Below, one piece after another: positions 5,276 to 64,000 of a DNA stretch of 64,000 nucleotides (position 1 is the first letter of the stretch; the number at the start of each line of letters is the position of its first letter). The stretch covers positions 1,856,001-1,920,000 of the forward strand of contig CH464491.1 of the NCBI GenBank assembly GCA_000002445.1, in the 5' to 3' direction. The DNA is from Trypanosoma brucei. Taxonomy: Eukaryota. Under the pieces are notes generated by a model, which saw only the letters and a program-made list of their open reading frames with translations, was not told where the DNA came from and made no database searches. Both the position numbers and the translations under genes were made by a program.

Positions 5276-6450
5276 ATGGGTGTCAGAAACCTCAGCGCTA
5301 CGGGTAGTTTTGGGTGTTGATAGCCAGTAAAAAAAAAAAAAGCAATATCACCCCATAGTGATGGTGAAGTGGAAATATAAAAAAATAATGAAAAGAGAAC
5401 AGGGTATATCCGAGCGGAATAGCCACCATGGAAAGCAAGTGTTACTAAGTGATCTGTCAAAGGGCTTTTCACCTGAACAGAAATATTTAAAAAAAATACG
5501 AACATATACTACTCACCGTATGCTTGGACTAAATCGCGGTACAAGCCACCCAAAAAAATAGTCAGCTACCTCCTCGGTAGGCGGTGAGCGAAGCGCTCAC
5601 ATGCTGTCAGAGTGATAGAATGGTAAAAATAAAAAAGTAAAAGATGGAGTAGTTGATTGACGTTTTTCCCTTTTCTTTTTTTCTAATTCGCACTCGTGCG
5701 TCTGCTTCGCCTTTCGATCCTTGTTCCTTTAAGAATGGATCAGGTCGATTGGGAGAAATGTTAAATTTAGTAGTAATCAGAAAGGTGGGAGACACTAAAA
5801 TTAAAAGCTAATAAAAGAAAAAAAATAAGAATGATAGCAGGAACGGTAACTATTGTAATGACGAGCCCGACTCAGGTGGTTCCCACCACCCTTGGGTTAG
5901 GCACCCGTTTTCGTGCTCGTGTTTGTTCGTGCCACAATAACGCACGACAGAATCCATCCACTACAGCATACGGCTCAAATGTTTTGTGGACACGTTTGTG
6001 TGCACATTTACTACCATCTCCCCTTTTTTCGATAGGTCCCTATTATCTACGTGTGTGTCATGGTTGCCTTTGTTGGTGTCGTTGAGGTAAATGAGCGCAG
6101 GCTTGCCGTGGTAAAACAAAAACACCGTTCCCCCTCCTCCCTCCACCAGCCTCCCATCACACAGTCATATGTACTGAAGGCGAGCTCAAAGCCTTCCTTG
6201 ATTCACTCTGAAGTCCTTCCACTCAGTAGTAAGTGGGAAATAGTGCGCTCCGGCGTTGCTTAGTCCCAGTTGCGCCGGTTGTTTGTCTGTTTTTTTCGCC
6301 GCGGAGACGTGTGCCTTCAGGGCATTCGACTCAGGAAAGGAAGGTTAACGGTCGGTCAACACAGCCGTGTGTCTCAGTGGTTATTCTCTTCCTATGTGTA
6401 CGCCCCCCTCCGTATCTAACAATGGTATGAGATCCTCGATATGCCTAACA

Positions 6451-7974
6451 CTACTGTTTTTCATCCTCGCTCAGAGTGCCTGTTACTATTCTCCCGTAAA
6501 AGTCCTCTTTCCGCACCAGTTGGCAATAGACAAGCGAAATGACCATTACAACCCCAAGTACTGAGAGGTTTACGATAACCGACTGCGTACTTTCCACCAT
6601 ACCCAGGACGATGAGTCCAGCGAAAAGTATCATTGGAATAATAAGCAAGTACAGTAGCTTCCCCTCAAAAGGAGCTCTGAACGGCCGCTTGAGATGCGGA
6701 TGGCGGTGGCGTATGACCAGGAAGGCAATAAAGATCATAAGCACCCTCAACCCGTAGAGCACTTGATCAACCTTCACGAGCGGTCCAAATTCGAGGAAGA
6801 CGCCGAACAATGCGCTTAATACTGCATTTAGGGTTAGGGTCCAATGATAAGTGCCGAAACGCTTGTTCCGTTTATACAAGACCCGATTAATCGGCCCGGG
6901 AAATGCTTCCGTGTAGGCAACACCTGCGATGATTTGTGTTGTTGTGCAGAAAGAAGAGAGCAGTAAGGCATGTGCAGACAGCGCGCTAGCAACAACCATA
7001 AATACCCTTAGTGGCACACCTCCCACACTGAAGGCGACGTCCGACCAGAAACCTGTTACCCACTGTGACAAATCAGGTAGGCCTTCTCGTATGCTTGCTC
7101 CAGTGAGTATTGGGGGAATGTACGTAAGGTAGGCAAGTCCCAGAAGAGGCGCAAGCGCGCGGATGAAGGTTCGTCGAGGTGCCTTGGTCTGTTCAATAAC
7201 CGTGGCGGCTTGCTCCAACCCACAAAGGTTCCACGAGGTAGTTGTTATGAATGTCGCCCAATCAATAGATGGGGGAATGTAGCTTATCGCCGGCCAGTTG
7301 AGGTAAAAATTGCTCTTGATCATATGCATCGAAAATAACGTCAAAAACGGTGCGACCGTCACAATAGAGAGTGCGATACTCAATTTTCCAACAGCCTGAA
7401 CTCCCACCATGTTCAACGTGTACGTCACCAGCACCATGCCCAACCGAAGCAGTTTACTGATCGTGTCAGAACAAGGGACTGCAGTGCACACGTACTCAGA
7501 TATGAGCACGGTATAAAGTGCATTGTCGATGAAAATGAGCAGGAAAGTCAGTAATACCATCGCGAAGTAAACAACACGATGGAATGAAACGTTGTACCAC
7601 ATTAAGAAGGCAGCGTTCGACGGTATGGCTGTTGCCAATTCCGCAACGACGATAGTCGTTGGCGCTGCCATGAGTAGGGGAACCAGAACAATAGAAATGA
7701 TACCAAGCAGTGGCCCTCCCCCGAGGACAGTTTCTTCAATAGCGTAAGCCCCAGAAGTAGTATACGCGTACATCAACCCCATGAGCATTGGTACTGAAAG
7801 ACTCCTCTTTGGAGCCCCTTTATCCAGGATGAATTGTTGCTCTCCGTCATTTGTCTGTCCTTCGACATCGGCCGAGGACTCAATTGGAGAGGCAGTTTCT
7901 TGTCGTTGACGAAAGATGTGGTAACGAGGGTGTTCGAAGTATTGATGTTCGTCCACGAATCCATCCCCAGCCAT
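6451..7974 (-). CDS. APC-superfamily amino acid/polyamine permease (multi-pass membrane transporter)
   Basis: 507-aa ORF with about 12 hydrophobic segments. N-terminal signature GGGPLLGIISIVLVPLLMAAPTTIVVAELATAIPSNAAF is typical of APC/AAAP transporters. Confidence 0.7.
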   Translation of the reverse strand: MAGDGFVDEHQYFEHPRYHIFRQRQETASPIESSADVEGQTNDGEQQFILDKGAPKRSLSVPMLMGLMYAYTTSGAYAIEETVLGGGPLLGIISIVLVPLLMAAPTTIVVAELATAIPSNAAFLMWYNVSFHRVVYFAMVLLTFLLIFIDNALYTVLISEYVCTAVPCSDTISKLLRLGMVLVTYTLNMVGVQAVGKLSIALSIVTVAPFLTLFSMHMIKSNFYLNWPAISYIPPSIDWATFITTTSWNLCGLEQAATVIEQTKAPRRTFIRALAPLLGLAYLTYIPPILTGASIREGLPDLSQWVTGFWSDVAFSVGGVPLRVFMVVASALSAHALLLSSFCTTTQIIAGVAYTEAFPGPINRVLYKRNKRFGTYHWTLTLNAVLSALFGVFLEFGPLVKVDQVLYGLRVLMIFIAFLVIRHRHPHLKRPFRAPFEGKLLYLLIIPMILFAGLIVLGMVESTQSVIVNLSVLGVVMVISLVYCQLVRKEDFYGRIVTGTLSEDEKQ

Positions 7975-8996: not shown

Positions 8997-10220
8997 CTAA
9001 GCATTCGCTCCTGATAGAAAGGGATGTTGAAGTAATTCAGCAGCCGTCGGTCTTTCAGTAGAATTCTTCAGAAGACACAAGGTAACAAAATCCTTCAGTT
9101 TGTCAGAATAGCTCTGCCCAGAGCCCTGGTCAAATTCGTCCAACACGGGACCGAAAGAGTTGGACGAGGATTGCCGATAGCCGTGCAATATCATTGACGG
9201 GATCTGCAACTCCAGAGGAGTCCACGGCAACCTCCCGGTTGATAGCTGGTACGTCAGCACGCCCACAGACCAGATGTCATTGGTGTATAGAAAGGGAATA
9301 CCCCGGCAACTTTCAGGGGACATGTAAGGTGCCGTACCATATATACCTTCCCGTCTGCCCACCCCTTCTTTCTTGACCGTTTTCCATTCTTCCAAGCCAC
9401 TCCCTTCCAAACAGCGTAGGCAAGGGCACATACAATCCACGTCCGACAACTTGTATCGCACCTCCCCGGCGCCCGCGCCCCCAAACAGGAGTATATTCTG
9501 GGGTTTAACGTCATTGTGTACTGCGCCAACAACGTCATGCATGTATTGCAGCGTACGGAGAACATCTAGGAGAACTGTCCGAACAACGCTGTCATTCAGC
9601 CTCTCCCTGCGCTTCAGGAGGGCATCCAAGGTCCCGCCGGAAGCGAGCTCCAACGCGGCGTACATGTCGATTCTTCCATCCTTCGTGCCATTTGCTGGAA
9701 AAAGCCCGGTGTAATAGCATCGAACAAATCCGGGGTGTGCGATACTGCGCCACAAACGCACAATGGCTATCAACCTATCAATCTCCTCAGCTCTGGTCAG
9801 TTGCAGCCGAGTTGCCTTCACAGCGACATGGTGTTCCTTCCAGCCATCAGTGGGTCTGGAGATAGTTCCGAGATACACAACTGAATTTGCTCCCTTCCCC
9901 AGAAGCTTAAACTGATGCTTCACAACAACAAGCTGTGACTCATCCCTAAACTCAAATGCCGCTACGGATGTTTCCGGTGTCTCGGAGGGTGTGGTGACCT
10001 TTACTTCTTCCACTTTGAACAGCGGGAAGAGGGACTCCTCCTCATCCTGTGCGCCTTCCTCTGCTCCCGTGGGGTGCGCGTCCACTCGTTCTTGCGGCAG
10101 TTCACACACCCCTTCGGGAGGTTCGGCACATGCTTGGGGAAGCTCTAGGAGCCGGGCTTTCACCTCCTGTAGCCGGCGCTCTAGTTCAACAAATCCCGTC
10201 GCACCATCGTCTCGTTCCAT
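8997..10220 (-). CDS. Ser/Thr protein kinase (kinase domain in the C-terminal two thirds)
   Basis: VAVK (subdomain II Lys), HNDVKPQNILL (catalytic loop), GTAPYMSPE (activation segment/APE), DIWSVGVLTYQLSTGRLPW (subdomain IX). Confidence 0.85.
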   Translation of the reverse strand: MERDDGATGFVELERRLQEVKARLLELPQACAEPPEGVCELPQERVDAHPTGAEEGAQDEEESLFPLFKVEEVKVTTPSETPETSVAAFEFRDESQLVVVKHQFKLLGKGANSVVYLGTISRPTDGWKEHHVAVKATRLQLTRAEEIDRLIAIVRLWRSIAHPGFVRCYYTGLFPANGTKDGRIDMYAALELASGGTLDALLKRRERLNDSVVRTVLLDVLRTLQYMHDVVGAVHNDVKPQNILLFGGAGAGEVRYKLSDVDCMCPCLRCLEGSGLEEWKTVKKEGVGRREGIYGTAPYMSPESCRGIPFLYTNDIWSVGVLTYQLSTGRLPWTPLELQIPSMILHGYRQSSSNSFGPVLDEFDQGSGQSYSDKLKDFVTLCLLKNSTERPTAAELLQHPFLSGANA

Positions 10221-11646
10221 TTTTTAGTCATTCCACTATGATTACGCGTGAAGAAAGGAAAAGGCAGCGTACATGCACATTCCAATACTTATATTCGGAC
10301 GATATGACTTCGAGGTTGCGGTGCAGCCTTAACTTATTTGTAACCCCTTAGCACAGAAGCATTTGTGTGTGCCCTCAGCTCGTTCGTTTGAGAATAAAGG
10401 TGGAAACTGGACTGAAAAAAAAAATCCACATTACAATACAGGCCAGTCAGCTGGCCCACCATCTTCTTCAGCGCAACCGAACGTTACGACATATGGTCGC
10501 TTGCCTCTGCGAATAGAAAGCCATCTGTTTCGGGCCCGCCTTTCCAATGAAGAGCGGCCTGCACTCAACAGCCAGCCATGTCGCACTGCATCCCGATGGG
10601 CACGCCCGAAGTGGGTATCTGGAAACTACAGCGTTGATACGGACGCCAGTGTAGGACAAAGAGAGTGTTTACCGCCCTGTACAGTCAGTTGGGGCTGCGG
10701 CCCGTGATTTTTCAGCGTTCGAGCCAAATGACCTGCGTCGACCGGTTAGGTCACATCCTAAGCAATACTGTCGCATAAGTGGGACGGATTCGCACCACAC
10801 ATCACCGTTATAAACGTATAGCTCCCCCTCACCGTTGACGAGATGTTACCCTCGGCACAGAGAAAGAGCTGGGGTTGTGCGCAGCACCCTAATACTCAAC
10901 AACAAATTATCCTTCACGACGAAAGCACAGGCAGCTAGACAGCGGTCGAAACTATCACATCCAAGCCTATACAAATCATCGCACCACCGCTTCGCACAAC
11001 ACACTTACGCGGACATATTGTGTTAACGCACTCAGGGACGACCTCCATCGTGTACCGTCCGGGAGACGGCGCTATGTCGCACCCGTAATGCTGTGGGAAA
11101 TATCGCAAAAAGCTCGACCTAAAACAGTTAAGTTCGATGTACACGGAAGGAGGTGCCTGATAACTGACTCCCAACCCTTCATGTCCCTCCGCTCCAGTAG
11201 CTAGAAACCACGAGAATCGGTGGTAATGATTGCTGGTCGGCTCCCTCGCCTCAACGTATGAGTCAAGGAAAATCAAAAAGTACAGGCTTTGTTTGACAGG
11301 TGCAGGTGAGAGATTAGACAGTGAACATCGCAAACAAAGTGCCAACGGTGAATGTGAAACCCCACAGGGGCTGCGAGCGATCTGATTATGTGGCACACGC
11401 GCAACCACAGGGAAAGTTGTTTTGTACTCGGTACTGATTACCACAAGAATAACGATATTTGTAACACTCCGTAATTTCCTATAAAACAGAAGCAAGGGGG
11501 AATGGGGAAGTGAGAAGAAATGCTTTTTTTCTTTTTTAAAACCACGCAACCAGCACACTACTTTGCGGAAACTAGCGTAGGAGAGGGGACCCTCACGACA
11601 GCCCCTTCCTGGAAGAAAATTTATTCTTTTCCCAGCGGAAATATTT

Positions 11647-11662
11647 CCCTAACCCTAACCCC
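11647..11662. repeat. Short interstitial telomere-like repeat (CCCTAA)2.5
   Basis: ccctaaccctaacccc, the complement of the TTAGGG telomeric hexamer, lying just downstream of the small ORF 11703-12101. Confidence 0.6.
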
Positions 11663-11702
11663 ACCACATTAAGCATATCCTTATCTCGGTACCCCTTCGC
11701 GA

Positions 11703-12101
11703 TCAGTCAACCCATCGCCGCGCGCCAGACATGTTTGGTACCTTCCATCCTTCCTGATGCTGCCAAAAGTGATGTGGTGTTCCACCCGAGTTGTTGTAGA
11801 AGAAATGCTTTGGGGTGCCAGGAGGTACCTCCTTCATCAACGGAAGGGGAATCCCAAAGAAGAGATCATACACGACACACGCCACAAAGGTAAAAATTGG
11901 TGCTCGGTAGAAAAGCCACTCAAAAGGAATTTGAAAAGGCCATCCAAGGGCATGCTTAGTCAGGTAAAACCCACCGGCAGTGGGTGCAGTAGAAATCTGT
12001 TTGGGTGCCTCCCGATAGGGAAACGTTCGCTTTGGAACGCCATGAGGATATAGTGCCTTCACATCAAATCCGCTAAATCTCAACCCCGAACGACTGACCA
12101 T
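11703..12101 (-). CDS. Small hypothetical protein with one predicted TM helix (possible organellar/respiratory accessory subunit)
   Basis: 132-aa ORF co-oriented with the gene array and sitting in an otherwise 2.1 kb gene gap. Protein-like composition and a hydrophobic segment YRAPIFTFVACVVYDLFFGIPLPL. The overlapping plus-strand ORF is less protein-like. Confidence 0.35.
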   Translation of the reverse strand: MVSRSGLRFSGFDVKALYPHGVPKRTFPYREAPKQISTAPTAGGFYLTKHALGWPFQIPFEWLFYRAPIFTFVACVVYDLFFGIPLPLMKEVPPGTPKHFFYNNSGGTPHHFWQHQEGWKVPNMSGARRWVD

Positions 12102-12370
12102 GGTTAATCTACAGCACGAAGTGTTGTAGCCTAACTAAGCGGGAAACCTAGTGCATGTATAAGAAAACGTTAACAAGATAAACAATGGCATTAACTTAGG
12201 AATTGTGCAAAGTTCGAAGAGCCACAAGGTTAGCCACACGTGGCCGCCGCACAAGCGGAAAAACATAGCGCTTCGTCTCTGTGATCCTATACATGGTACG
12301 ACCCCCGCAAGCTGTTACAAAGCTCTCCATAGGCATTTTCGTGCAACAAGAAATCCCTCTGCAGCACCTG

Positions 12371-13594
12371 TTAATGCCTATCTGCAAGGAAGCGTCGGCC
12401 CCTAATAGCTTTCAATACCTCCACTCTGAGATTCAGTACGGCCTGCAGGGACTCTGCGCACTGAATTGGTTCTGCTTCACCACACGCAACAAGTTGCGGC
12501 CTGGCGTTAATGATTTCTGAAGTTAACCTGAACTCTTCTTCAGCTCTGTTTATGTCTTTCTGCAGAAGAAAACAGCTTCCCAAATTCAGGGGCAGCCATG
12601 GGTCGTATTTGAGCTTGTCGGTGCCCTCCGCCATCAAACTCTGAAAATCCACAATAGCAGCCTTAAGGAGTTCCTCTTCGTATGCCCGTTGGTCCACTGC
12701 TGCTAGTTCACCAAGCACCTCCGACTTCACATCATCCAAAGATTTCAGAGCTGGCAGAACAACAGAGGCGCCGTCACAACGTTTTGTGGCAGCAGGCTGG
12801 GAACTTTCCTCATCGTCATACTTCCAACTAGACTCAACAATACGCAGTGCAAGACATGCCCGACGCAGCTGAGCATAGTGGTACTCCTCCTTCACCCTCA
12901 GAGCGGATGAGTACGCTTGCAATGCCTCCTTTAATAGGCCTTGCTCTTCATATGCCCTTCCTAGGTTAGCCCACGCGTAGTAATTGGCTTCGTTCAATCG
13001 TATCGCCGTTTTAAAGTCATTAACGCACTGATTGAACTCCGAAGAAAGGAGACGAAGACCAGGTACACGTGTGCTCAAGATACATAAGCCTCTGTGATTA
13101 TATGCGTGGTCATTGTCAGGCTCTACATTGATAATTGAACTGTAATCTACGAAGGCGGAAGACCAATTTGATGAAGCCACGTAGCTTGCTGCACGTGCCT
13201 CCATAGCTCTAATATTTAGTGGATCTTTCTCCAGGCACTGGGAATAACGCTCGATTGCTTTTTCATATTCCTCTTGACCACGAAGGCACTCCCCGAGTAG
13301 GAAATAAGCAACTGTGTTTTCCTCGTATATCTCTATCGCTGCCTCCAAAGCTACCATTGCCTTTACATAATTCGGTTGTGCGTTCCTACCTGTCGGTTCC
13401 AGCAATGAGAGGCCTTCGTCGCACTTTTCGTGAGAAGATTTTATCCGAGCTTCTAACAGCTTTCTCTCCTTGCGCCTGGCTCTCCGCTCCTTACTCGACT
13501 TCGAGCGCTTTGCCATTGTATAATTTCTGGTGAGGTGGGAGAGACATCCAAAATAAAAGGGGGACATTGGCTCAAAACACACAGAGACGTACAC
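12371..13594 (-). CDS. TPR-repeat protein (probable true start MAKRSK... near 13516)
   Basis: Several 34-aa TPR units: AYFLLGECLRGQEEYEKAIERYSQCLEKDP, AYNHRGLCILS, AWANLGRAYEEQGLLKEALQAYSSALRV. Only about 220 bp separate it from the capping-enzyme gene. Confidence 0.7.
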   Translation of the reverse strand: MYVSVCFEPMSPFYFGCLSHLTRNYTMAKRSKSSKERRARRKERKLLEARIKSSHEKCDEGLSLLEPTGRNAQPNYVKAMVALEAAIEIYEENTVAYFLLGECLRGQEEYEKAIERYSQCLEKDPLNIRAMEARAASYVASSNWSSAFVDYSSIINVEPDNDHAYNHRGLCILSTRVPGLRLLSSEFNQCVNDFKTAIRLNEANYYAWANLGRAYEEQGLLKEALQAYSSALRVKEEYHYAQLRRACLALRIVESSWKYDDEESSQPAATKRCDGASVVLPALKSLDDVKSEVLGELAAVDQRAYEEELLKAAIVDFQSLMAEGTDKLKYDPWLPLNLGSCFLLQKDINRAEEEFRLTSEIINARPQLVACGEAEPIQCAESLQAVLNLRVEVLKAIRGRRFLADRH

Positions 13595-55572: not shown

Positions 55573-56331
55573 TCACTCCAATTCCTCCATCGCAGTTCCG
55601 TCATCCCGTCCTTCCGGATGTGCGTCTTCTGTCCATAAGGCGAGGTTGTCACGCAACAGTTGCATGATGAGTGCCGCTTCTTTGTGTTGTTCCTCATCCA
55701 ACACATCCGGATCGCTCAGCGCCTCCTCAAAGGCCTCGCGTGCCAATTGGCAACCGCGGTCAGGACTCTTCAGGATTTCGTAATAGAAAACGGAGAAGTT
55801 TAATGCGAGTCCGAGGCGAATAGGGCTCGTCGGTTTCAATGAAGCGTTGTATTGCATTGCCTGCGTGTAAGCCTCCAGCGCCTTGTCCTTCTGTTCCTCT
55901 GTATTGGTTTCAATTTCGGCATAGTAACGGTGATAGTCGCCCTTCATCTTGAGGTAATACACTTTCGTCTCATCCGTCTCAGCATTAGGCAGCAGATGCT
56001 TCTCGATAAGTTCCAAAATGTCGATGCAAATGTCACTTAATTCCTTTTCGATTTGGCGCTTGAAGGCCTTAATGAGTGTAACATTCTTTTCTTTCTTCAG
56101 ATCCTCCTTCTGCTCCAGTGCGCTGATGCTTCTCCAACAGGCACGACGGGCTCCAATGACGTTTTTATACGCGACGGAGAGAAGATTGCGCTCCTCCGAC
56201 GACAGGACGGGGTTCAGTTTTACGACCCGTTTCATGCAAACGAGGATCTCGTCATACCGCTCACACTGTTCAGCGATCCGCGCCATGACTGTAAGCTGCT
56301 CGCGCTTTTCAGGTATTTGAAAGCCCGCCAT
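55573..56331 (-). CDS. 14-3-3 protein
   Basis: Full-length 14-3-3 signature blocks: [66 protein letters not shown], and an acidic C-terminus. The ORF track extends the N-terminus through an A-rich leader. The real start is taken as ATG 56331..56329 ([13 protein letters not shown]). Confidence 0.9.
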
Positions 56332-58856
56332 TTTAACCGCTTGTTTTTTCTTTTGTTTTTTTTGTTGTTGTTGATATACGCGTTCTTTGTTCACTTATTT
56401 TCTTCTCTTTTTTTTTTAATATAGATTTTTTTTTGTTTATTCTACGTACTGTTATTTAAAGCAAAAATGGTAATAACAGCAACGCTGGTGTAAAGACCCA
56501 CCTTCACTTGATGCTATTCTCCTCTTTTTTTTTCTTTTTTTTTTCAAAAAAAAATGTTGACTTCACCTATTTTGACGTTCTCTTTCCTTCTCACGTTGCT
56601 CTATCCTTTTTATTATTGTTATTATTCTTTTTTTTCTCGATTGAATCTCTTTAACTACAGCACACGAAAAAAAAAAGAAGGAAACAACAACAACAACACG
56701 AGACGGTTGTGTACAATGATAATAATGAGAGCAACAGAAGGTGACAAAACAAACAAAAGAAAAACAGTAATAAACAAAATTTAAAGTAATAATAAAAATG
56801 ATAAAAAAAAAAAGGAAACATAAATAGAAACCGAAGATACCCATAATATGTAGGAATTTTAAAAAAAACAAAGGGAAAAAAGAAAAAAAAACTTCGAAAA
56901 ACAAAAAACAAAGTAAAGAAAGAAAGAATAATAACAAACAACAAAAACAACAAAAAACAAAAGAAATCGTAAATGGAAAAAAAAACAGCCATGAGAAAAA
57001 TGTGTGAAGGCAAGAAATATATGATGAGAGAGGCGAGAAAACAAAAAGGTGGAGAGGAAAACAAAAAAAAATAATTATAAAAGGGTGTCGTATCATCGTT
57101 ACATTTCACGCAAAAAAATGTATGAATAGAGTAGAGGCCTTATTGCATTTACCATTATAATCATCACCATTATTATTATTATTATTATTCTTATCCCGTT
57201 CTTTTCTATTTGTGTGTGTGTTTTTTTTTTAATTTGATTTCGCAAGGGTTGCTCCATTCTCGGTACCAGCTTTTCTTTTTTTCTTTTTATTTCTTAAAAG
57301 AAATTTAAGTTTTGATATATATATATATATATATATTGTTTAAAAATTAATTGCCCCATTTTCCTTCTTCTTAATTTCTATATTCACTTTTGCCCCTGCT
57401 CCACTTCACCTCCGCACAACAAAACAACAACAGAAAGATACCGTTACAAATATGCAAACATTCCACACAGCCCGAAACCAACCGCGCTCAAACAAATAAA
57501 ATAATAACAATAATAATAATAAAGGAAACAACAAAAATACAACACGATATCATAATAATAAAGAACTCTATGGTATTTTCCCCCTTTCAACAGGTTTCTT
57601 TTAGCCAAAAATATTTTCATTTATAAAAAGGGGTAAAGAAATGACAAAACAAATCACAACAGGTTGGTAATGATGACTGCAGGTGTACGTTAAGTAAAAG
57701 GTTTTGTGGGCTTAAAATATGTTTGCATATGTTTTTCTTTTCTTTTTTTAACCACCTCTCTTTTCCTCCTCCTCCTCCTTTACGTTTGTGTTGTTGTGCG
57801 AAGTAAAGTGTGAAGTGAATTGGGAAGTGATGTGTTGTTATATAAATATATATATTTTTTATTTTTTTTATTTATTCGACTCCCTTCTTTTTTCTTTTTG
57901 TGTTTCCTCTCCGCCAATTGTAGAACCTCACTGATGTATTTTAACTTCTTTTTTTTTTTGCGTCTATGGTGCCACAGCGCTCATCGTATTGAAAAACGGT
58001 TCGCGCCGCGCGGGAGAAAAATTGAAAAAAAAACAATTGAAAGTGTTTGTGTTTATTTATTTATTATTTTTTTTTTGCGATTAAATTGTGTGTGTAAAAG
58101 TGAGTGAGTGAATGAATGAATGTGGATGTATATATATATGTGTATGTGTATGTGTCTATGGGGTCCTTTTACACATCCTCTGGCTGTTCCATTTACCAAT
58201 CTACAAAACAAAATAAAAATAAAGAGGAATCAACTGAATCACGCGCAAACACAAGACCAAAAATAAAAAATTAAAAAAAAGATAAAAATAAAAAAAAATA
58301 AAAAAGATAATTCGGCCGTTTCATGCAGCAGAATATGTAGAGGCTCTATATTTCGGATCCCTGAGGCGTATATATATATATATTTTTTCCTTCCCTCTTC
58401 TTCTTTTGTTCTCTCGTCCTTCTGAAATGTATAATGAACGAAGAAATATACGACCAACGGCTCCGAAGTGGAACATAAAACATAAAATAAAAGAAAACAT
58501 AAAAAAAACGAAGAGGGGAATACTTGTGTTTGCATATTCATATATAAATATATAAATATATATGTGCGTGTGTGATTCGTAAGAGGGGAAGGAAATATAT
58601 GTTGGACTTCCACCAAAGAAACAGTCCGTCATCTAAATTGTAAGGGGAAGGGAAGAAGAGGTGTAGTAAAACAAAAAACAAGAAAGGGTGGGGAAATGTA
58701 CAAAGGGAAGGGAGAAACTTATCCTTTAAAACAAAATAATAATAATAAAAAAACATTAGACAAAACACGATAAAAATACAAGGGTAAGGAAGAACTGTAA
58801 CAAACAATAAATTAAAAAAAAAACAACAACAAAGAAACAAAGTTTTTAATTCGATT

Positions 58857-61646
58857 CTATTCCAACGACTCACCAGAGGAGGCCTTGGTGGTGTCAGTCT
58901 GTTTTGCACCCTCCACCGCCATTTTCTTTTGGCGGCGCTCGTGCATACGTATGGTGCGCTCAGTCTGCTTGATCAGCTTTCGCAACCGTCGTGACACAAC
59001 CATCGAATGTTCTAACGACCCTTTAACAGGACCCGAAAGACCTAACTGCTGTACGGGAACACTTCCACCTTCTTTTGCTGCTCCATTTTGCAAGTACCGG
59101 TCTAAAGAAGTCCCCTGACGCCGTAAATGATAAACCATATCATTACAGCGCTTCCATGAGGACACGGGGTACTCGGCTAACGATGGCAAATTGTCTACGG
59201 TATTAAGTTCACGGTCAAACTTGACACAAGCCTCATTTGCCAGCACCATCTTGGGGTCAAAAGAAGACATACTAAGTTGCTCTGGGTTGCGTACACGACT
59301 CATGGCGACGTATAACAAATGCTCACAGGGCCACATGCGGGACAGTTCGAGATGGACACGACCAACAAGCGTTAGTCCCTGCACCTTATGGACGGTGAAG
59401 GCATATGCTAAACTAAGGGGCAGGGATACGCTGCTTAGACTGTAGTACTGGGTAATGGGATTTCCACCAACCAAAAATTCCCACGGCGGGACAACAATCG
59501 TTTCACCACTATGGAACTTAACTACAGGTAAAAGCGGTACGGGCATGCCGCATTCCATCGTGCAGTAAATACGATACCTATCGACGCAGCGGTTCACACG
59601 TTCGCAACGAAGGGCAACAGGAATATTTTCCATACTACACTCCACGAAGTCCACTACTGTACCAATACTCCCGTTGACTAAACGTGAAGTGAGGTTGGTA
59701 CGCAAAAGGACGCGGCACCCCTTCTTTAGCGTAAGCGGTTGCGCGATGGGGTGCTTTGCCATAAGCCTCTGCAGACATTCCTCGTGCTCTGGCGTGTGCA
59801 GACCGTCTCCGCTGGGTATAATCTCCGTCACAGTGGCTCCTATGTCTAAGTCATTGATCAGGCCTGCAACTTCTAGGAAACGCTCGCGTATCGCGTCACG
59901 CCAAGCAACACTTTCGCTCTGCGGAAGGTAAACGCGTACGGCATGACCATCTTCGTAGATACGGTAGGCAGACACCATGGATGCCCTAGGGATGTCAACT
60001 GTGGCTTGCAGCAATCCACGCAAGTGCTTTGTAAACTCCTCCACTTTGAAATCCTTCGTTGTCCTCATGAGGAGTGTTGCTGTGGTGTCACACCTAAGAG
60101 CTGTTATACCCGTCTCCGGCGTAAGGGTGACAGCATCTCCGGGAAGGCGTTTCAGTTCTTCTTCATTCGCTGTGTTTACTTCCTTGTTGGTTGGAAGAAG
60201 GTTCACGGCTGCCGGTACCATAGTTCCCGGTGGAAGCTGTTCAACAGACGCTGTCAAACTTTCCGGCACAAGTCCTACACGCATTTGTTGCAACGCATCT
60301 GCAAAAAGACTGCTCTTGGCTTGGCGAACCTGAGTTTCCAGGCGGATCTTCACGAATTTCTCCCGGAAAGTAGTGGAATGGATTATCGGGGGCTCATTGA
60401 TCACACCTAGCTGCAGGAAATCACCACAGAGGATGATTTGCACCCCGCCAAAGGGCACGTCCGGCGCACCAGCTTCCTCACGGAGAACCCTATCGAACTC
60501 CTCAAACATTTTCTTAGGCAACATAGACACTTCATCAATGATGATAGCGTCGTAGCTCAATAGGTGGTTCTTTCGCACGAAGTCACCCTGGGCGGAAACT
60601 CCCATGGCGTGGTGGAAGGTTGAACCTCCAATGTGGCAACCAGCAACACCTGTGGTGGCCGTCATTGCAACGCGCAATCCCTCCGCTTGCATCCGTCTAC
60701 ACAAGGCGCGTAGCAAAACCGTCTTTCCTGTACCAGCACTGCCACCAATGTACATCAAGTGGCCTTTCAGGGCCAGGTTAATGACCTTCTCCTGCTCCTC
60801 GTTAAGATCAACCGCAACAAACTCATCGGCCAAGCCACCGTCTAGGATATTCTGCAGGTCCGTATCGCCCACAGCATTGACAACGGCGGCGTAACGGCTG
60901 TGCGTTAGGTTGTTAATCTTCACCTGCATCATCTGCTGAATCGCTTCGGCTGGATCTTCAACTCTGCGGTTGCGTAGGATCACCCCGAGGGCACGGATAA
61001 TTGTTACGGGCCAGTTGGAGGGGAGCGTCGCCGTACCCTTCCTCATTCTCTGCGCGAGGTCCCGGAGGACATCGGGCTTCTCAACGTACAGCTGCCGTTT
61101 GTTGTTGACACCAAACCCTATGCTCTTCAAGCATAAGAAGGATGGTGATGTCTCCGATGTCATACGGCCAGTCAGTGCGTTGTACACCAACGTCGAATGA
61201 AGGGGTAGTTGAGGCTCACCGTCTATTGGCCCCATCGTTTCCTCTTGTGGCTGAATTTGTGGTGGTGTGGCTGCCAGGGGCTCCTCCTTAACTTCAGCGG
61301 CGCGCACCTCCAGAGTGGCAGGGGGTTGGATGGCGTCTGGCATGTTTTCCTGAGGCAGTGCAACGCCTTCCCGCGCCCCCGTCACTGAAGTTTGCGCGTC
61401 TGTGGGTGTTGAGAGGGTCGTCGTTGCTTTGGAACGTCGCTTTGAGCCCCTCTTGGGCTCACGCTTGCGCTCCTTCTCCGTTCCACTGGTGAAGCGCATG
61501 GCACAAAATAGTGCACCGGCGTTGTAGTCAACAGGCATCAGTGCGGTGCGAACGAGTCCGACAGAAGCGCTTTTACGTGGTAGAGTTGAAGCTGATGTAC
61601 CCGACAACGCCACATTGTACGCTGGTTGGAGGAGCCGACGCAACAT
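58857..61646 (-). CDS. PIF1-family 5'-3' DNA helicase with mitochondrial-type presequence
   Basis: Walker A YIGGSAGTGKT, Walker B IIIDEVSMLPKKMF, motif III ILCGDFLQLGVI, and the PIF1 C-terminal block [52 protein letters not shown]-terminus MLRRLLQPAYNVALSG... Confidence 0.85.
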   Translation of the reverse strand: MLRRLLQPAYNVALSGTSASTLPRKSASVGLVRTALMPVDYNAGALFCAMRFTSGTEKERKREPKRGSKRRSKATTTLSTPTDAQTSVTGAREGVALPQENMPDAIQPPATLEVRAAEVKEEPLAATPPQIQPQEETMGPIDGEPQLPLHSTLVYNALTGRMTSETSPSFLCLKSIGFGVNNKRQLYVEKPDVLRDLAQRMRKGTATLPSNWPVTIIRALGVILRNRRVEDPAEAIQQMMQVKINNLTHSRYAAVVNAVGDTDLQNILDGGLADEFVAVDLNEEQEKVINLALKGHLMYIGGSAGTGKTVLLRALCRRMQAEGLRVAMTATTGVAGCHIGGSTFHHAMGVSAQGDFVRKNHLLSYDAIIIDEVSMLPKKMFEEFDRVLREEAGAPDVPFGGVQIILCGDFLQLGVINEPPIIHSTTFREKFVKIRLETQVRQAKSSLFADALQQMRVGLVPESLTASVEQLPPGTMVPAAVNLLPTNKEVNTANEEELKRLPGDAVTLTPETGITALRCDTTATLLMRTTKDFKVEEFTKHLRGLLQATVDIPRASMVSAYRIYEDGHAVRVYLPQSESVAWRDAIRERFLEVAGLINDLDIGATVTEIIPSGDGLHTPEHEECLQRLMAKHPIAQPLTLKKGCRVLLRTNLTSRLVNGSIGTVVDFVECSMENIPVALRCERVNRCVDRYRIYCTMECGMPVPLLPVVKFHSGETIVVPPWEFLVGGNPITQYYSLSSVSLPLSLAYAFTVHKVQGLTLVGRVHLELSRMWPCEHLLYVAMSRVRNPEQLSMSSFDPKMVLANEACVKFDRELNTVDNLPSLAEYPVSSWKRCNDMVYHLRRQGTSLDRYLQNGAAKEGGSVPVQQLGLSGPVKGSLEHSMVVSRRLRKLIKQTERTIRMHERRQKKMAVEGAKQTDTTKASSGESLE
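59275..59433. repeat. Copy 1 of a ~160 bp near-identical tract shared by the two PIF1 paralogs
   Basis: 59275-59433 aligns to 62965-63123 with only about 4-5 mismatches (gttgctctgggttgcgtacacgactcatggcgacgtataacaaatg...), while flanking coding sequence is much more diverged. Confidence 0.85.
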
Positions 61647-62714
61647 AACGTATGCACGAGTAAAAGGCTCTTTAACTCGATTTCCTCGGTGGATGTCGTT
61701 GGAATAGTATCAGTTGCTGCTGCTGGATCGTTGTAAAAAGGACAACAGCAACCGGAAAAAAGGGGGAAGAGAGGGAATTAAAAATAAAATAAAAAAAGAA
61801 AAGAAAATAAGTGCTTTTATAGACGCTTAGAGGTAGCTCGTATATATACCTCTTTGTAGCTTGATCTAGTGGGAATGTTTATGGTGTATCTTTTTTGCTT
61901 TTTTTTGGCTTTAAAGATCTTTTCGTTTTCTCTTTTTTTTAAAAAAAACTTGCTGTATGGTTAATCTACTGTTTGTGCGTCTAAGAATAATAACTTTTCG
62001 TATTAGGCATAGGTTGTTACATAAAGAAAAGAGAGATGGAGGTGCAGGTACGAGTGCAAGTGCAAGTGCAAACAAACGGACATACACAAGTACGAAAACG
62101 TATGGAAGGTTAGCATAGTCCATGGTACCAATTTTTAGTCTAAATTACACGCGAACAACAAACGAAACAAAAAAATATATACGAGGGGAGGAATGAAAAG
62201 AAACGCCAAAAATAAACACGAATTATTCCACCACTCCCGTACACAGCACGTGTAGTCACTGCGAATGGATTTACAAATGTTGTTAGAGCTTCTTTGCCAC
62301 TTTTGAGAGAACTTCGCTGGAATGGGAATGGGCAAGAGATAGTAACAACAGTAGTAACGACAAAATCCTTCTCCCTTCCTGTGGCAAGCCATCTTAAGAC
62401 ATACGAAAGGAAGCAAGCGTGGGGAGACTTAGAGAAGGTATTTTTTTTTTTTTTTGTGACGGAGAGGGAGGAAAACGGTGGGAAAAATCAGAAGCACATA
62501 CCCTCCGCAATTTTCAAGGGATCACTGCACCAAATAAAGAATAAGCGGATAAACTGTACAGTTAATGACACAACTATATGGCACCAATAAAATAAAGCAC
62601 ATGAGAGAACCCATGTATTGTCGTCCCTCAACCTTGTGCACGCATCCAGAAGCAGTAAATAGCAGAGCACGCGCATTTTACCCGGTATGTTTGTGTGGCA
62701 ACCCGGCTATGATT

Positions 62715-64000
62715 TTACGGTGTTGCTTCCTTCGCTTGCTTTATCATTGCTTCTTTCAGTTTCGCAGCCTTCTTTTGCTTGGATTGCTTTGCCTGCTCCC
62801 TTTTCCGCTGGAGTGCCGCCTTACGTCTACTGGGTGTGCGCTGCCAGCTTGCCTGGAAGAAGTGTGGCAAAACCCGCACTTGTTCAACCGGAGGCAACGA
62901 GTCATCGAAGAGGAGACATTCAGACGCACATCGCACGAGACTGTTGTGAAACGATGACACCGTCAGTTGCTCTGGGTTGCGTACACGACTCATGGCGACG
63001 TATAACAAATGATCACAGGGCCACATGCGGGACAGTTCGAGATGGACACGACCGGCAAGCGTTAGTCCCTGCACCTTATGAACGGTGAAGGCATATGCTA
63101 AACTAAGGGGCAGGGATACGATGCCTACATGGTAGTGGTTCGTGTTTGACAGCCCTCCAACTGAGAAAAGAACGGGTGGGACAACAATCACGCGCCCCCC
63201 TCCGAAATCTACCTCGGGTGCAAACGCAGTGGTGAAGCCGTGCTCGTACCGTAGGTACTCGGCGTAATTTTCAACTGCGGCTATCCTTCCTGGTGTGTTT
63301 ACAAATCGCGGAAGGTGCTTTGCACTAAGTTCTTTGAACCCGACAACTACACCAAGACTACCATTTACGAGACCTGGGGCGAGGTTTGTACGCAACATCA
63401 CTTTAGCACCCTTCTTGAGGCGTAGCGGAGACGCCATGGGGTGAAGCTCTGCATATCGCGTTAGCGTGTAATCGTCTGCATCGGTATGCAGTCCGTCAGG
63501 TGAGTCAAGGATTTCTCTCAAGAAAACCCCAAGCCCACACGCCGGAAGCCATGTTTCCAAACCACGCAGATGCAGCGCAAGGTCCCGCATGTCCTTCTCA
63601 CTCATGTCTTGTGGTATACGAACTCGAAATGCGAAGGCATCAACAAACAGTTTGTACAGCACAATGTACCGCTGACCTACAACCGGTAGCGTATAATCAC
63701 TGGCATAAGGTGTTTTCTGAAGGAAATCAAGCACATACTGCTCTAGCGCCCTGGTTAACTTATGCGTATCTATCATTTTCGTGTCTTTCACCACAGCCTC
63801 CAGTATATATGTTGCAGTCCACCGTCCAACCAGTGATGGAGCTTGCATTTGTGCGGGATATACGACAAGATCACTGGGAAGCTTGTCCAGCTCTGCTTGA
63901 TTCACCTCATCCACTTCCTTGTTCGTGGGGAGCAACTTCACCGCGCCCTTTCCCTCACCCTCTAACCATTTCGCTGTTTCTGGTGGGGATAGGAATTGAA
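62715..64000 (-). CDS. PIF1-family DNA helicase paralog, N-terminal part beyond the window edge
   Basis: C-terminal PIF1 block [51 protein letters not shown] and upstream helicase 2B-domain similarity to the neighbouring PIF1. The frame stays open to the window end, so the listed Met at 63941 is probably internal. Confidence 0.8.
62965..63123. repeat. Copy 2 of the PIF1 inter-paralog near-identical tract
   Basis: See copy 1 (59275-59433). Confidence 0.85.

Follow-up and report, generated by a model that had tools for sequence, protein, structure and literature searches.

The tandem PIF2 and PIF1 genes and the block they share

The subject of this analysis is a pair of tandem helicase genes of Trypanosoma brucei, TbPIF1 and TbPIF2, and a short block of sequence that the two have in common. 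Both lie on the minus strand at one end of a window of 64,000 nucleotides (nt), the whole stretch that was analyzed (contig CH464491.1 of assembly GCA_000002445.1, forward-strand positions 1,856,001 to 1,920,000); coordinates below are those of the window unless another locus is named. The coding sequence (CDS) of TbPIF1 (58857-61646) specifies 929 amino acids plus a stop codon and is assigned to a mitochondrial PIF1-family helicase by its open reading frame (ORF), homology, and Pfam PF05970. The protein is 99.7% identical (3 amino acid differences) to the T. b. equiperdum “DNA repair and recombination helicase protein PIF1.” Only the 3' part of TbPIF2 (62715-64000; 428 codons plus stop) falls in the window, whose end cuts the gene. 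It was recognized by PF05970 and by homology to the T. b. equiperdum locus L001, in which the full-length gene (L001:5793-8939) encodes 1048 amino acids. The PF05970 matches score 101.3 bits for PIF1 and 96.3 bits for the full PIF2 protein, against a cut-off of 25.9. Both helicases keep the Walker A (GGSAGTGKT) and Walker B (DEVSM) motifs along with motifs V and VI, and across 10 sequences the residues G305, G307, K308, D371, E372, H753-K754-x-Q756-G757, and Y779-V780-A781-x-S783-R784 are invariant.

The two proteins are by no means interchangeable. According to a 2022 review (PMC10719067), PIF1 (Tb927.11.6890) acts in minicircle replication and is found at the antipodal sites, and PIF2 (Tb927.11.6900; 115 kDa) acts in maxicircle replication and is found in the kinetoflagellar zone. 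Both are essential, and their knock-down phenotypes differ (PMC10719067). Helicase activity has been reported for TbPIF2 (PMC10719067, PMC2743194). The same two sources agree with an earlier reading of this DNA, made from the sequence only, which had noted that kinetoplastids carry an expanded and largely mitochondrial PIF1 family.

The shared block, referred to here as the tract, occupies 59275-59433 in PIF1 and 62965-63123 in PIF2, on the minus strand in both. The copies align without a gap at a constant offset of 3690 nt and differ at 5 of 159 positions (96.9% identity). Given by their positions in the PIF1 copy, the mismatches are 59322, 59364, 59365, 59391, and 59431, and the perfect-match runs within the pair measure 47, 41, 25, and 39 nt. 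A codon alignment defines a core of 52 codons (156 nt; 59274-59429 in PIF1), the mismatch at 59431 lying just beyond it. A repeat search of the window recovered the pair independently (family D5), and a 46-nt probe taken from the tract has exactly two occurrences in the window, where shuffles lead one to expect 0. A third copy was sought within the 64 kb and none was found. Between the genes lies a nonrepeated intergenic spacer (61647-62714), which sets the two copies 3690 nt apart in direct orientation.

What surrounds the tract is very different from it. The remainder of the two genes is 30 to 65% identical; at the same offset, identity beyond the tract edges is only 16 to 65% per 100 nt, and the PIF1 and PIF2 flanks differ at 49 to 60% of their nucleotides. 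Within the tract, 45 of 46 degenerate codons that specify the same amino acid are identical between the T. brucei paralogs, as opposed to 50 of 126 outside it (Fisher p = 1.6e-13), and the corresponding counts at four-fold sites are 27/28 and 22/66. The sequence-only reading had described two adjacent PIF1-family genes, diverged over most of their length, that share this stretch at about 97% identity with synonymous positions included, and the description is accurate. A simple recent duplication, which it had named as an alternative, would give uniform identity over the whole gene, and no such uniformity is seen. As for the protein, the tract aligns with a block near the C-terminal end of the solved Pif1 helicases 7oar, 6s3e, 6hph, 5fhd, and 5o6b (AxTVHKxQG...LYVAxxR), which we take to be motifs V and VI of superfamily 1 (SF1) helicases.

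The tract in other kinetoplastids

Is the tract a peculiarity of T. brucei? The PIF2-PIF1 tandem was compared in 11 lineages, T. brucei and 10 others. It is syntenic in T. vivax, T. cruzi, T. theileri, T. grayi, T. rangeli, Leptomonas pyrrhocoris, and Leishmania donovani, and also in Bodo saltans, T. melophagium, and a metagenomic kinetoplastid-like scaffold (L011). The genes named PIF2 sit upstream of PIF1 in the other genomes compared. In 10 of the 11 lineages, all but L011, the same 52 codons are 94 to 100% identical between the paralogs of one genome. Scans of PIF1 against PIF2 within each genome return, in every species but L011, a single block of 90 to 100% identity at the same codons over a background of 20 to 75%. 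The ten (T. brucei and all the species just named) are called the converting lineages below, for reasons that will become apparent. Their tract boundaries agree to about 20 nt: the T. vivax tract reaches 14 nt further at the 3' side, while those of T. theileri and T. melophagium begin 12 to 21 nt later. The amino acid sequence of the tract is nearly invariant across species, and immediately beside it stand conserved residues that are specific to one paralog or the other, YYSLSS versus HYHMGI upstream and SMSSF versus TVSSF downstream.

T. brucei itself is the least homogenized of the ten. The four internal differences in its core consist of a V/A difference at two adjacent bases (GTT/GCC), an E/D difference (GAG/GAT), and one synonymous site (GTC/GTT). 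The amino acid differences lie at 59322 and 59364-59365 in PIF1, corresponding to 63012 and 63054-63055 in PIF2, and it is the PIF2 copy that has D for E and A for V. Both paralogs have V and E in the other nine converting lineages, except that both Bodo copies have D. For T. congolense the PIF2 protein (P0042) was compared; it has the D of PCDHLL, not the A. A second, independent T. brucei assembly, that of T. b. equiperdum (L001), carries the same tract. Its PIF1 differs from that of the window at 17 nt, none of them within the tract, and its PIF2 differs at 6 positions over the 1286 nt of the 3' part, 2 of which (63076 and 63060) fall inside the 156-nt tract. Each of these two strain differences adds or removes one mismatch between PIF1 and PIF2.

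What does the block look like in the absence of homogenization? Two metagenomic scaffolds provide an answer. L011 carries a tandem PIF pair (L011:6190-9237 and 10001-12991) with upstream synteny as in trypanosomatids, and a further tandem pair is present on L014 (~5530-7791 and 10001-12115). The protein of the motif V-VI block is conserved in both, with DNA identity between the copies of just 78 to 85% in L011 and 70% in L014. These lineages have either lost conversion or never had it, and this is the appearance of the block where conversion is not ongoing. A metagenome scan for further tandem pairs covered 13 loci and found one only in L014, the remainder being distant Pif1 relatives. In L013 (P0026) the contig begins at the PIF1-like gene, and the paralog upstream of it is therefore missing.

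Some observations on individual loci should be added. In T. vivax, a complete 1055-codon PIF2 ORF stands upstream of PIF1 (L002:5655-8822) but has no gene call in that assembly; TbPIF2 matches it by tblastn with 60% identity over 726 residues. In T. grayi, the final 413 nt of CDS and the 29 nt that follow do not differ between PIF1 and PIF2 (L005:12213-12654 versus L005:9077-9518). Each of the two proteins terminates in KTVSMSR, and the contig stops where the identity does, 29 nt past the PIF1 stop codon. This extended identity represents either a longer conversion that gave PIF1 the tail of PIF2 or a mis-join of the assembly at the shared tract. In Bodo, a second block of similarity (about 60% identity) at the 5' ends of the genes was rejected as an alignment effect, the sequences being unrelated past the first codons.

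Conversion and its alternatives

What has kept the two copies alike? It is highly probable, to judge from the patterns described in this section, that recurrent nonallelic (interlocus) gene conversion between the direct tandem paralogs PIF2 and PIF1 has preserved the tract as an island of concerted evolution. In a neighbor-joining tree of the tract, the paralogs pair by species, with bootstrap values of 96 to 100% in nine of the ten converting lineages; the value is 43% in T. theileri, which has a very close sister in T. melophagium. The neighbor-joining tree of the flanks instead splits all PIF1 from all PIF2 with a bootstrap value of 98%. Its topology puts the duplication that produced the two genes before the split of Bodo from the trypanosomatids; dated by sequence in this way, the duplication predates their common ancestor. 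Quartet site patterns give the same contrast. In the tract, 9 to 40 sites sort by species and 0 to 4 by gene, and in the flanks 109 to 723 sites sort by gene and 5 to 82 by species. Even T. theileri and T. melophagium, closely related as they are, conform to the pattern, which implies that conversion took place after their recent split.

The sequence-only reading had also proposed that gene conversion homogenized the C-terminal helicase block, and the sorting of the tract by species and the flank by gene, together with its alignment to motifs V and VI, bears this out. Less durable was its description of the conversion as recent. The conversion stands, but a one-off event in T. brucei does not; the process appears to be recurrent, its boundaries nearly unchanged throughout Trypanosomatidae and in Bodo. 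It is true that a single recent event specific to T. brucei, an accident without a history, would be compatible with the T. brucei pair taken alone, with its 97% identity over 159 nt and its sharp edges. Such an event becomes very improbable, however, given that these codons are homogenized in nine further lineages as well, every one of them with synonymous codons of its own, and that sites sorting by species exceed those sorting by gene even in the T. theileri and T. melophagium comparison. That ten independent accidents should all have had the same boundaries is far less likely than that one process has continued.

Might selection act on the nucleotides themselves? An RNA or DNA element embedded in both CDSs, such as a structure, a protein-binding site, or a small-RNA target, would indeed yield synonymous identity within a genome. 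Such identity is plain to see: between paralogs within species, codons for the same amino acid differ in 26 of 484 cases in the tract (5%) and in 1313 of 2267 in the flank (58%). Orthologs of different species, however, disagree at 59% of such codons within the tract and at 61% within the flank. Synonymous sites in the tract thus differ between species about as much as those in the flank, so that species have no conserved nucleotide sequence in common here and the identity is confined to single genomes. An embedded element is on these grounds even harder to credit than a single event. The cross-species alignment contains no conserved synonymous positions or compensatory base pairs, and when the tract RNA was folded and compared with shuffles it folded no better than they did (z = -0.55). 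The pattern is present in T. cruzi and L. donovani as well, species that to our knowledge lack RNA interference (RNAi), and a trans-acting partner that coevolved with the element in every lineage would be unparsimonious. Near-identical paralogs in each lineage, combined with synonymous evolution at a normal rate between species, instead imply that the copies have repeatedly been reset to each other, lineage by lineage.

It could also be imagined that no recombination is involved, and that an invariant protein combined with a strong codon-usage bias has led both genes to the same optimal codons. The tract is the most conserved block of the protein, and its GC content at third codon positions (GC3) is raised in most lineages, as this idea would have it. 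Constraint can be controlled for by considering only those codons at which all 20 sequences specify the same amino acid. At such codons the paralogs differ at 47 to 64 of 90 in the flank but at only 0 to 4 of 40 in the tract, so equal invariance outside the tract has not brought the codons together. The codons of the T. brucei tract, moreover, are mixed (GC3 of 0.49), and yet the paralogs match, while L011 and L014 keep the protein block at the much lower DNA identities given above. Codon bias also cannot produce lineage-specific amino acid replacements that are common to both paralogs, and several of these exist: SRVC in T. melophagium, LPLC in T. rangeli, LPLT in T. grayi, and NPDQL in T. 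vivax and T. rangeli. The Bodo-specific SKMWPCD...SRVK is likewise present in both of its paralogs. Taken together, these observations leave codon convergence with very little probability. What, then, of the raised GC3? In 9 of 11 lineages it is higher than at flank codons of equal invariance (p between 0.04 and 3e-11), with no excess in the two least homogenized lineages, T. brucei (0.49 versus 0.53) and L011, and this suggests a fit to GC-biased conversion.

Weakest of all, and scarcely worth entertaining, is an artifact of assembly or read collapse in which the assembler copied one paralog's sequence into the other, a possibility that the sequence-only reading had raised: it might apply to the T. 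grayi identity, which runs to a contig end and whose extension could be a mis-join, but ten independent assemblies from different projects have the same tract edges, the two T. brucei assemblies carry the tract although they differ elsewhere, and several species retain 1 to 4 internal differences between copies, of which a collapse would leave none.

Several considerations nonetheless weigh against recurrent conversion, or against parts of it. (i) It is read from sequence patterns throughout, and no conversion event has been observed directly; the two strain differences in the PIF2 copy, between the window and T. b. equiperdum, are the sole hint of a transfer. (ii) T. brucei keeps its four differences, with two nonsynonymous sites among them, and has no GC3 excess; conversion may have slowed in this species, or the sites may be protected by selection. 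(iii) The D of T. brucei PIF2 is also found in T. congolense PIF2, and if T. congolense PIF1 has E, then this site has long resisted conversion. (iv) The GC3 excess could stem in part from selection on codon usage. (v) The boundaries could be set either by a heterology block or by selection.

A proposed self-sustaining island, its consequences, and its relatives

How might identity be restored each time it begins to decay? With recurrent conversion as the preferred account, the process would begin with a break or stalled replication fork in or near the tract of one paralog, repaired by homologous recombination with the 156-bp identical stretch of the other as template, whether on the same chromatid, the sister, or the homologue. 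A short patch would be copied without crossover, and the spread of heteroduplex would be blocked by the flanks, which are about 50% diverged. Crossovers would go unseen because each would delete one of two essential genes. Selection probably removes those conversions that overwrite the adjacent paralog-specific residues (YYSLSS/HYHMGI and SMSSF/TVSSF), which would sharpen the edges further. In T. brucei the efficiency of homologous recombination increases linearly as homology lengthens from 50 to 200 bp; below 50 bp it is very low, and mismatches impede the reaction (Barnes and McCulloch, PMC1904282). With such a dependence on homology, a 156-bp island should be a usable substrate and the flanks should not. 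The island might in this way sustain itself: extreme constraint on the motif V-VI protein would slow divergence, high identity would keep recombination efficient, and recombination would restore identity. Once conversion lapsed, as may have happened in L011 and L014, identity would decay to 70 to 80%, and escape is probably irreversible.

Homogeneity might also be useful in itself, although this is a doubtful proposition. PIF1, working on minicircles, and PIF2, working on maxicircles, may both need an identical motif V-VI module that coevolves with a shared partner or with the geometry of DNA contact in the replication of kinetoplast DNA, and conversion would spread changes in the module to both enzymes. 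If this were true, it would account for lineage-specific changes always appearing in both paralogs and for boundaries fixed since before the bodonid-trypanosomatid split, and, of the segments in eukaryotic protein-coding genes known to convert continuously, the tract would be one of the oldest.

Whatever its use to the parasite, the tract has consequences for those who study these genes. (i) In phylogenies of the PIF family, the most conserved block carries the signal of the species and not of the gene, which can mislead trees, orthology calls, and tests of selection. (ii) RNAi triggers, probes, primers, and guide RNAs placed in the tract would target both TbPIF1 and TbPIF2, because perfect runs of 47, 41, and 39 nt are available; small interfering RNAs are about 24 to 26 nt long. 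(iii) The tract is a place where assemblies built from short reads can break or be wrongly joined, and the end of the T. grayi contig is a possible example. The pair also provides a clean natural example of gene conversion coexisting with functional divergence in essential genes, for which the two escaped lineages serve as natural controls.

The neighborhood of the pair is conserved as well. Directly downstream of PIF1 in the window is a gene for a 14-3-3 protein (55573-56394, minus strand), and at L001 the order is the 1048-amino-acid PIF-family gene, PIF1, 14-3-3, and OPA3. The order PIF2-PIF1-14-3-3-OPA3 is conserved in those Trypanosoma loci that reach far enough downstream. Leptomonas and Leishmania have the same gene order with 1 or 2 extra genes inserted, and in Bodo 14-3-3 is again downstream of PIF1, several genes further on. 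All 19 ORFs of at least 250 amino acids in the window are on the minus strand, consistent with a single polycistronic transcription unit, and the intergenic regions around the PIF genes contain many A/T and pyrimidine runs.

Has anything like this been seen before? Partial gene conversion and concerted evolution have been documented in tandem arrays of T. brucei, for example in the phosphoglycerate kinase (PGK) array, whose middle copy is a conversion chimera (Jackson 2007, PMC1855330). Table S3 of that study lists a “pif1 helicase-like protein” as tandem pair no. 125, and the main text and the supplements searched were found to contain no analysis of the pair beyond this listing (PMC1855330). 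A literature search likewise found no description of the tract, or of conversion, for the PIF1/PIF2 pair. The pair resembles those arrays in that tandem paralogs lie in one polycistronic unit, with some segments homogenized within species and others keeping their orthology, and in that homogenization and functional differentiation occur in one locus. It differs in the great age of its paralogs and in their distinct functions (the proteins are about 40% identical), and in that conversion would affect one short internal block common to Bodo, Leishmania, and Trypanosoma.

As helicases, the two proteins have PF05970, Walker A and B, and the motif V-VI block in common with other PIF1-family (SF1B) helicases, namely ScPif1, human PIF1, and bacterial Pif1. 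The T. brucei pair differs from the solved Pif1 helicases in its long kinetoplastid-specific N- and C-terminal extensions and its large 2A/2B insertion.

Another parallel comes from yeast, where ribosomal-protein and histone paralogs left by the whole-genome duplication have undergone long-term concerted evolution; there is also a body of theory on selection against conversion. Shared with those paralogs are very long-lived conversion in the most constrained parts and escape once identity has become too low. The yeast paralogs, however, are usually homogenized as whole genes with the same function, whereas PIF1 and PIF2 share the motif V-VI block only and act on different substrates, minicircles and maxicircles. 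The PIF1/PIF2 tract opens no new kind of biology. The process is an ordinary one, and is notable for its age, which reaches back before the Bodo-trypanosomatid split as sequences date it, for its sharp and conserved boundaries, and for its presence in two essential helicases with different substrates.

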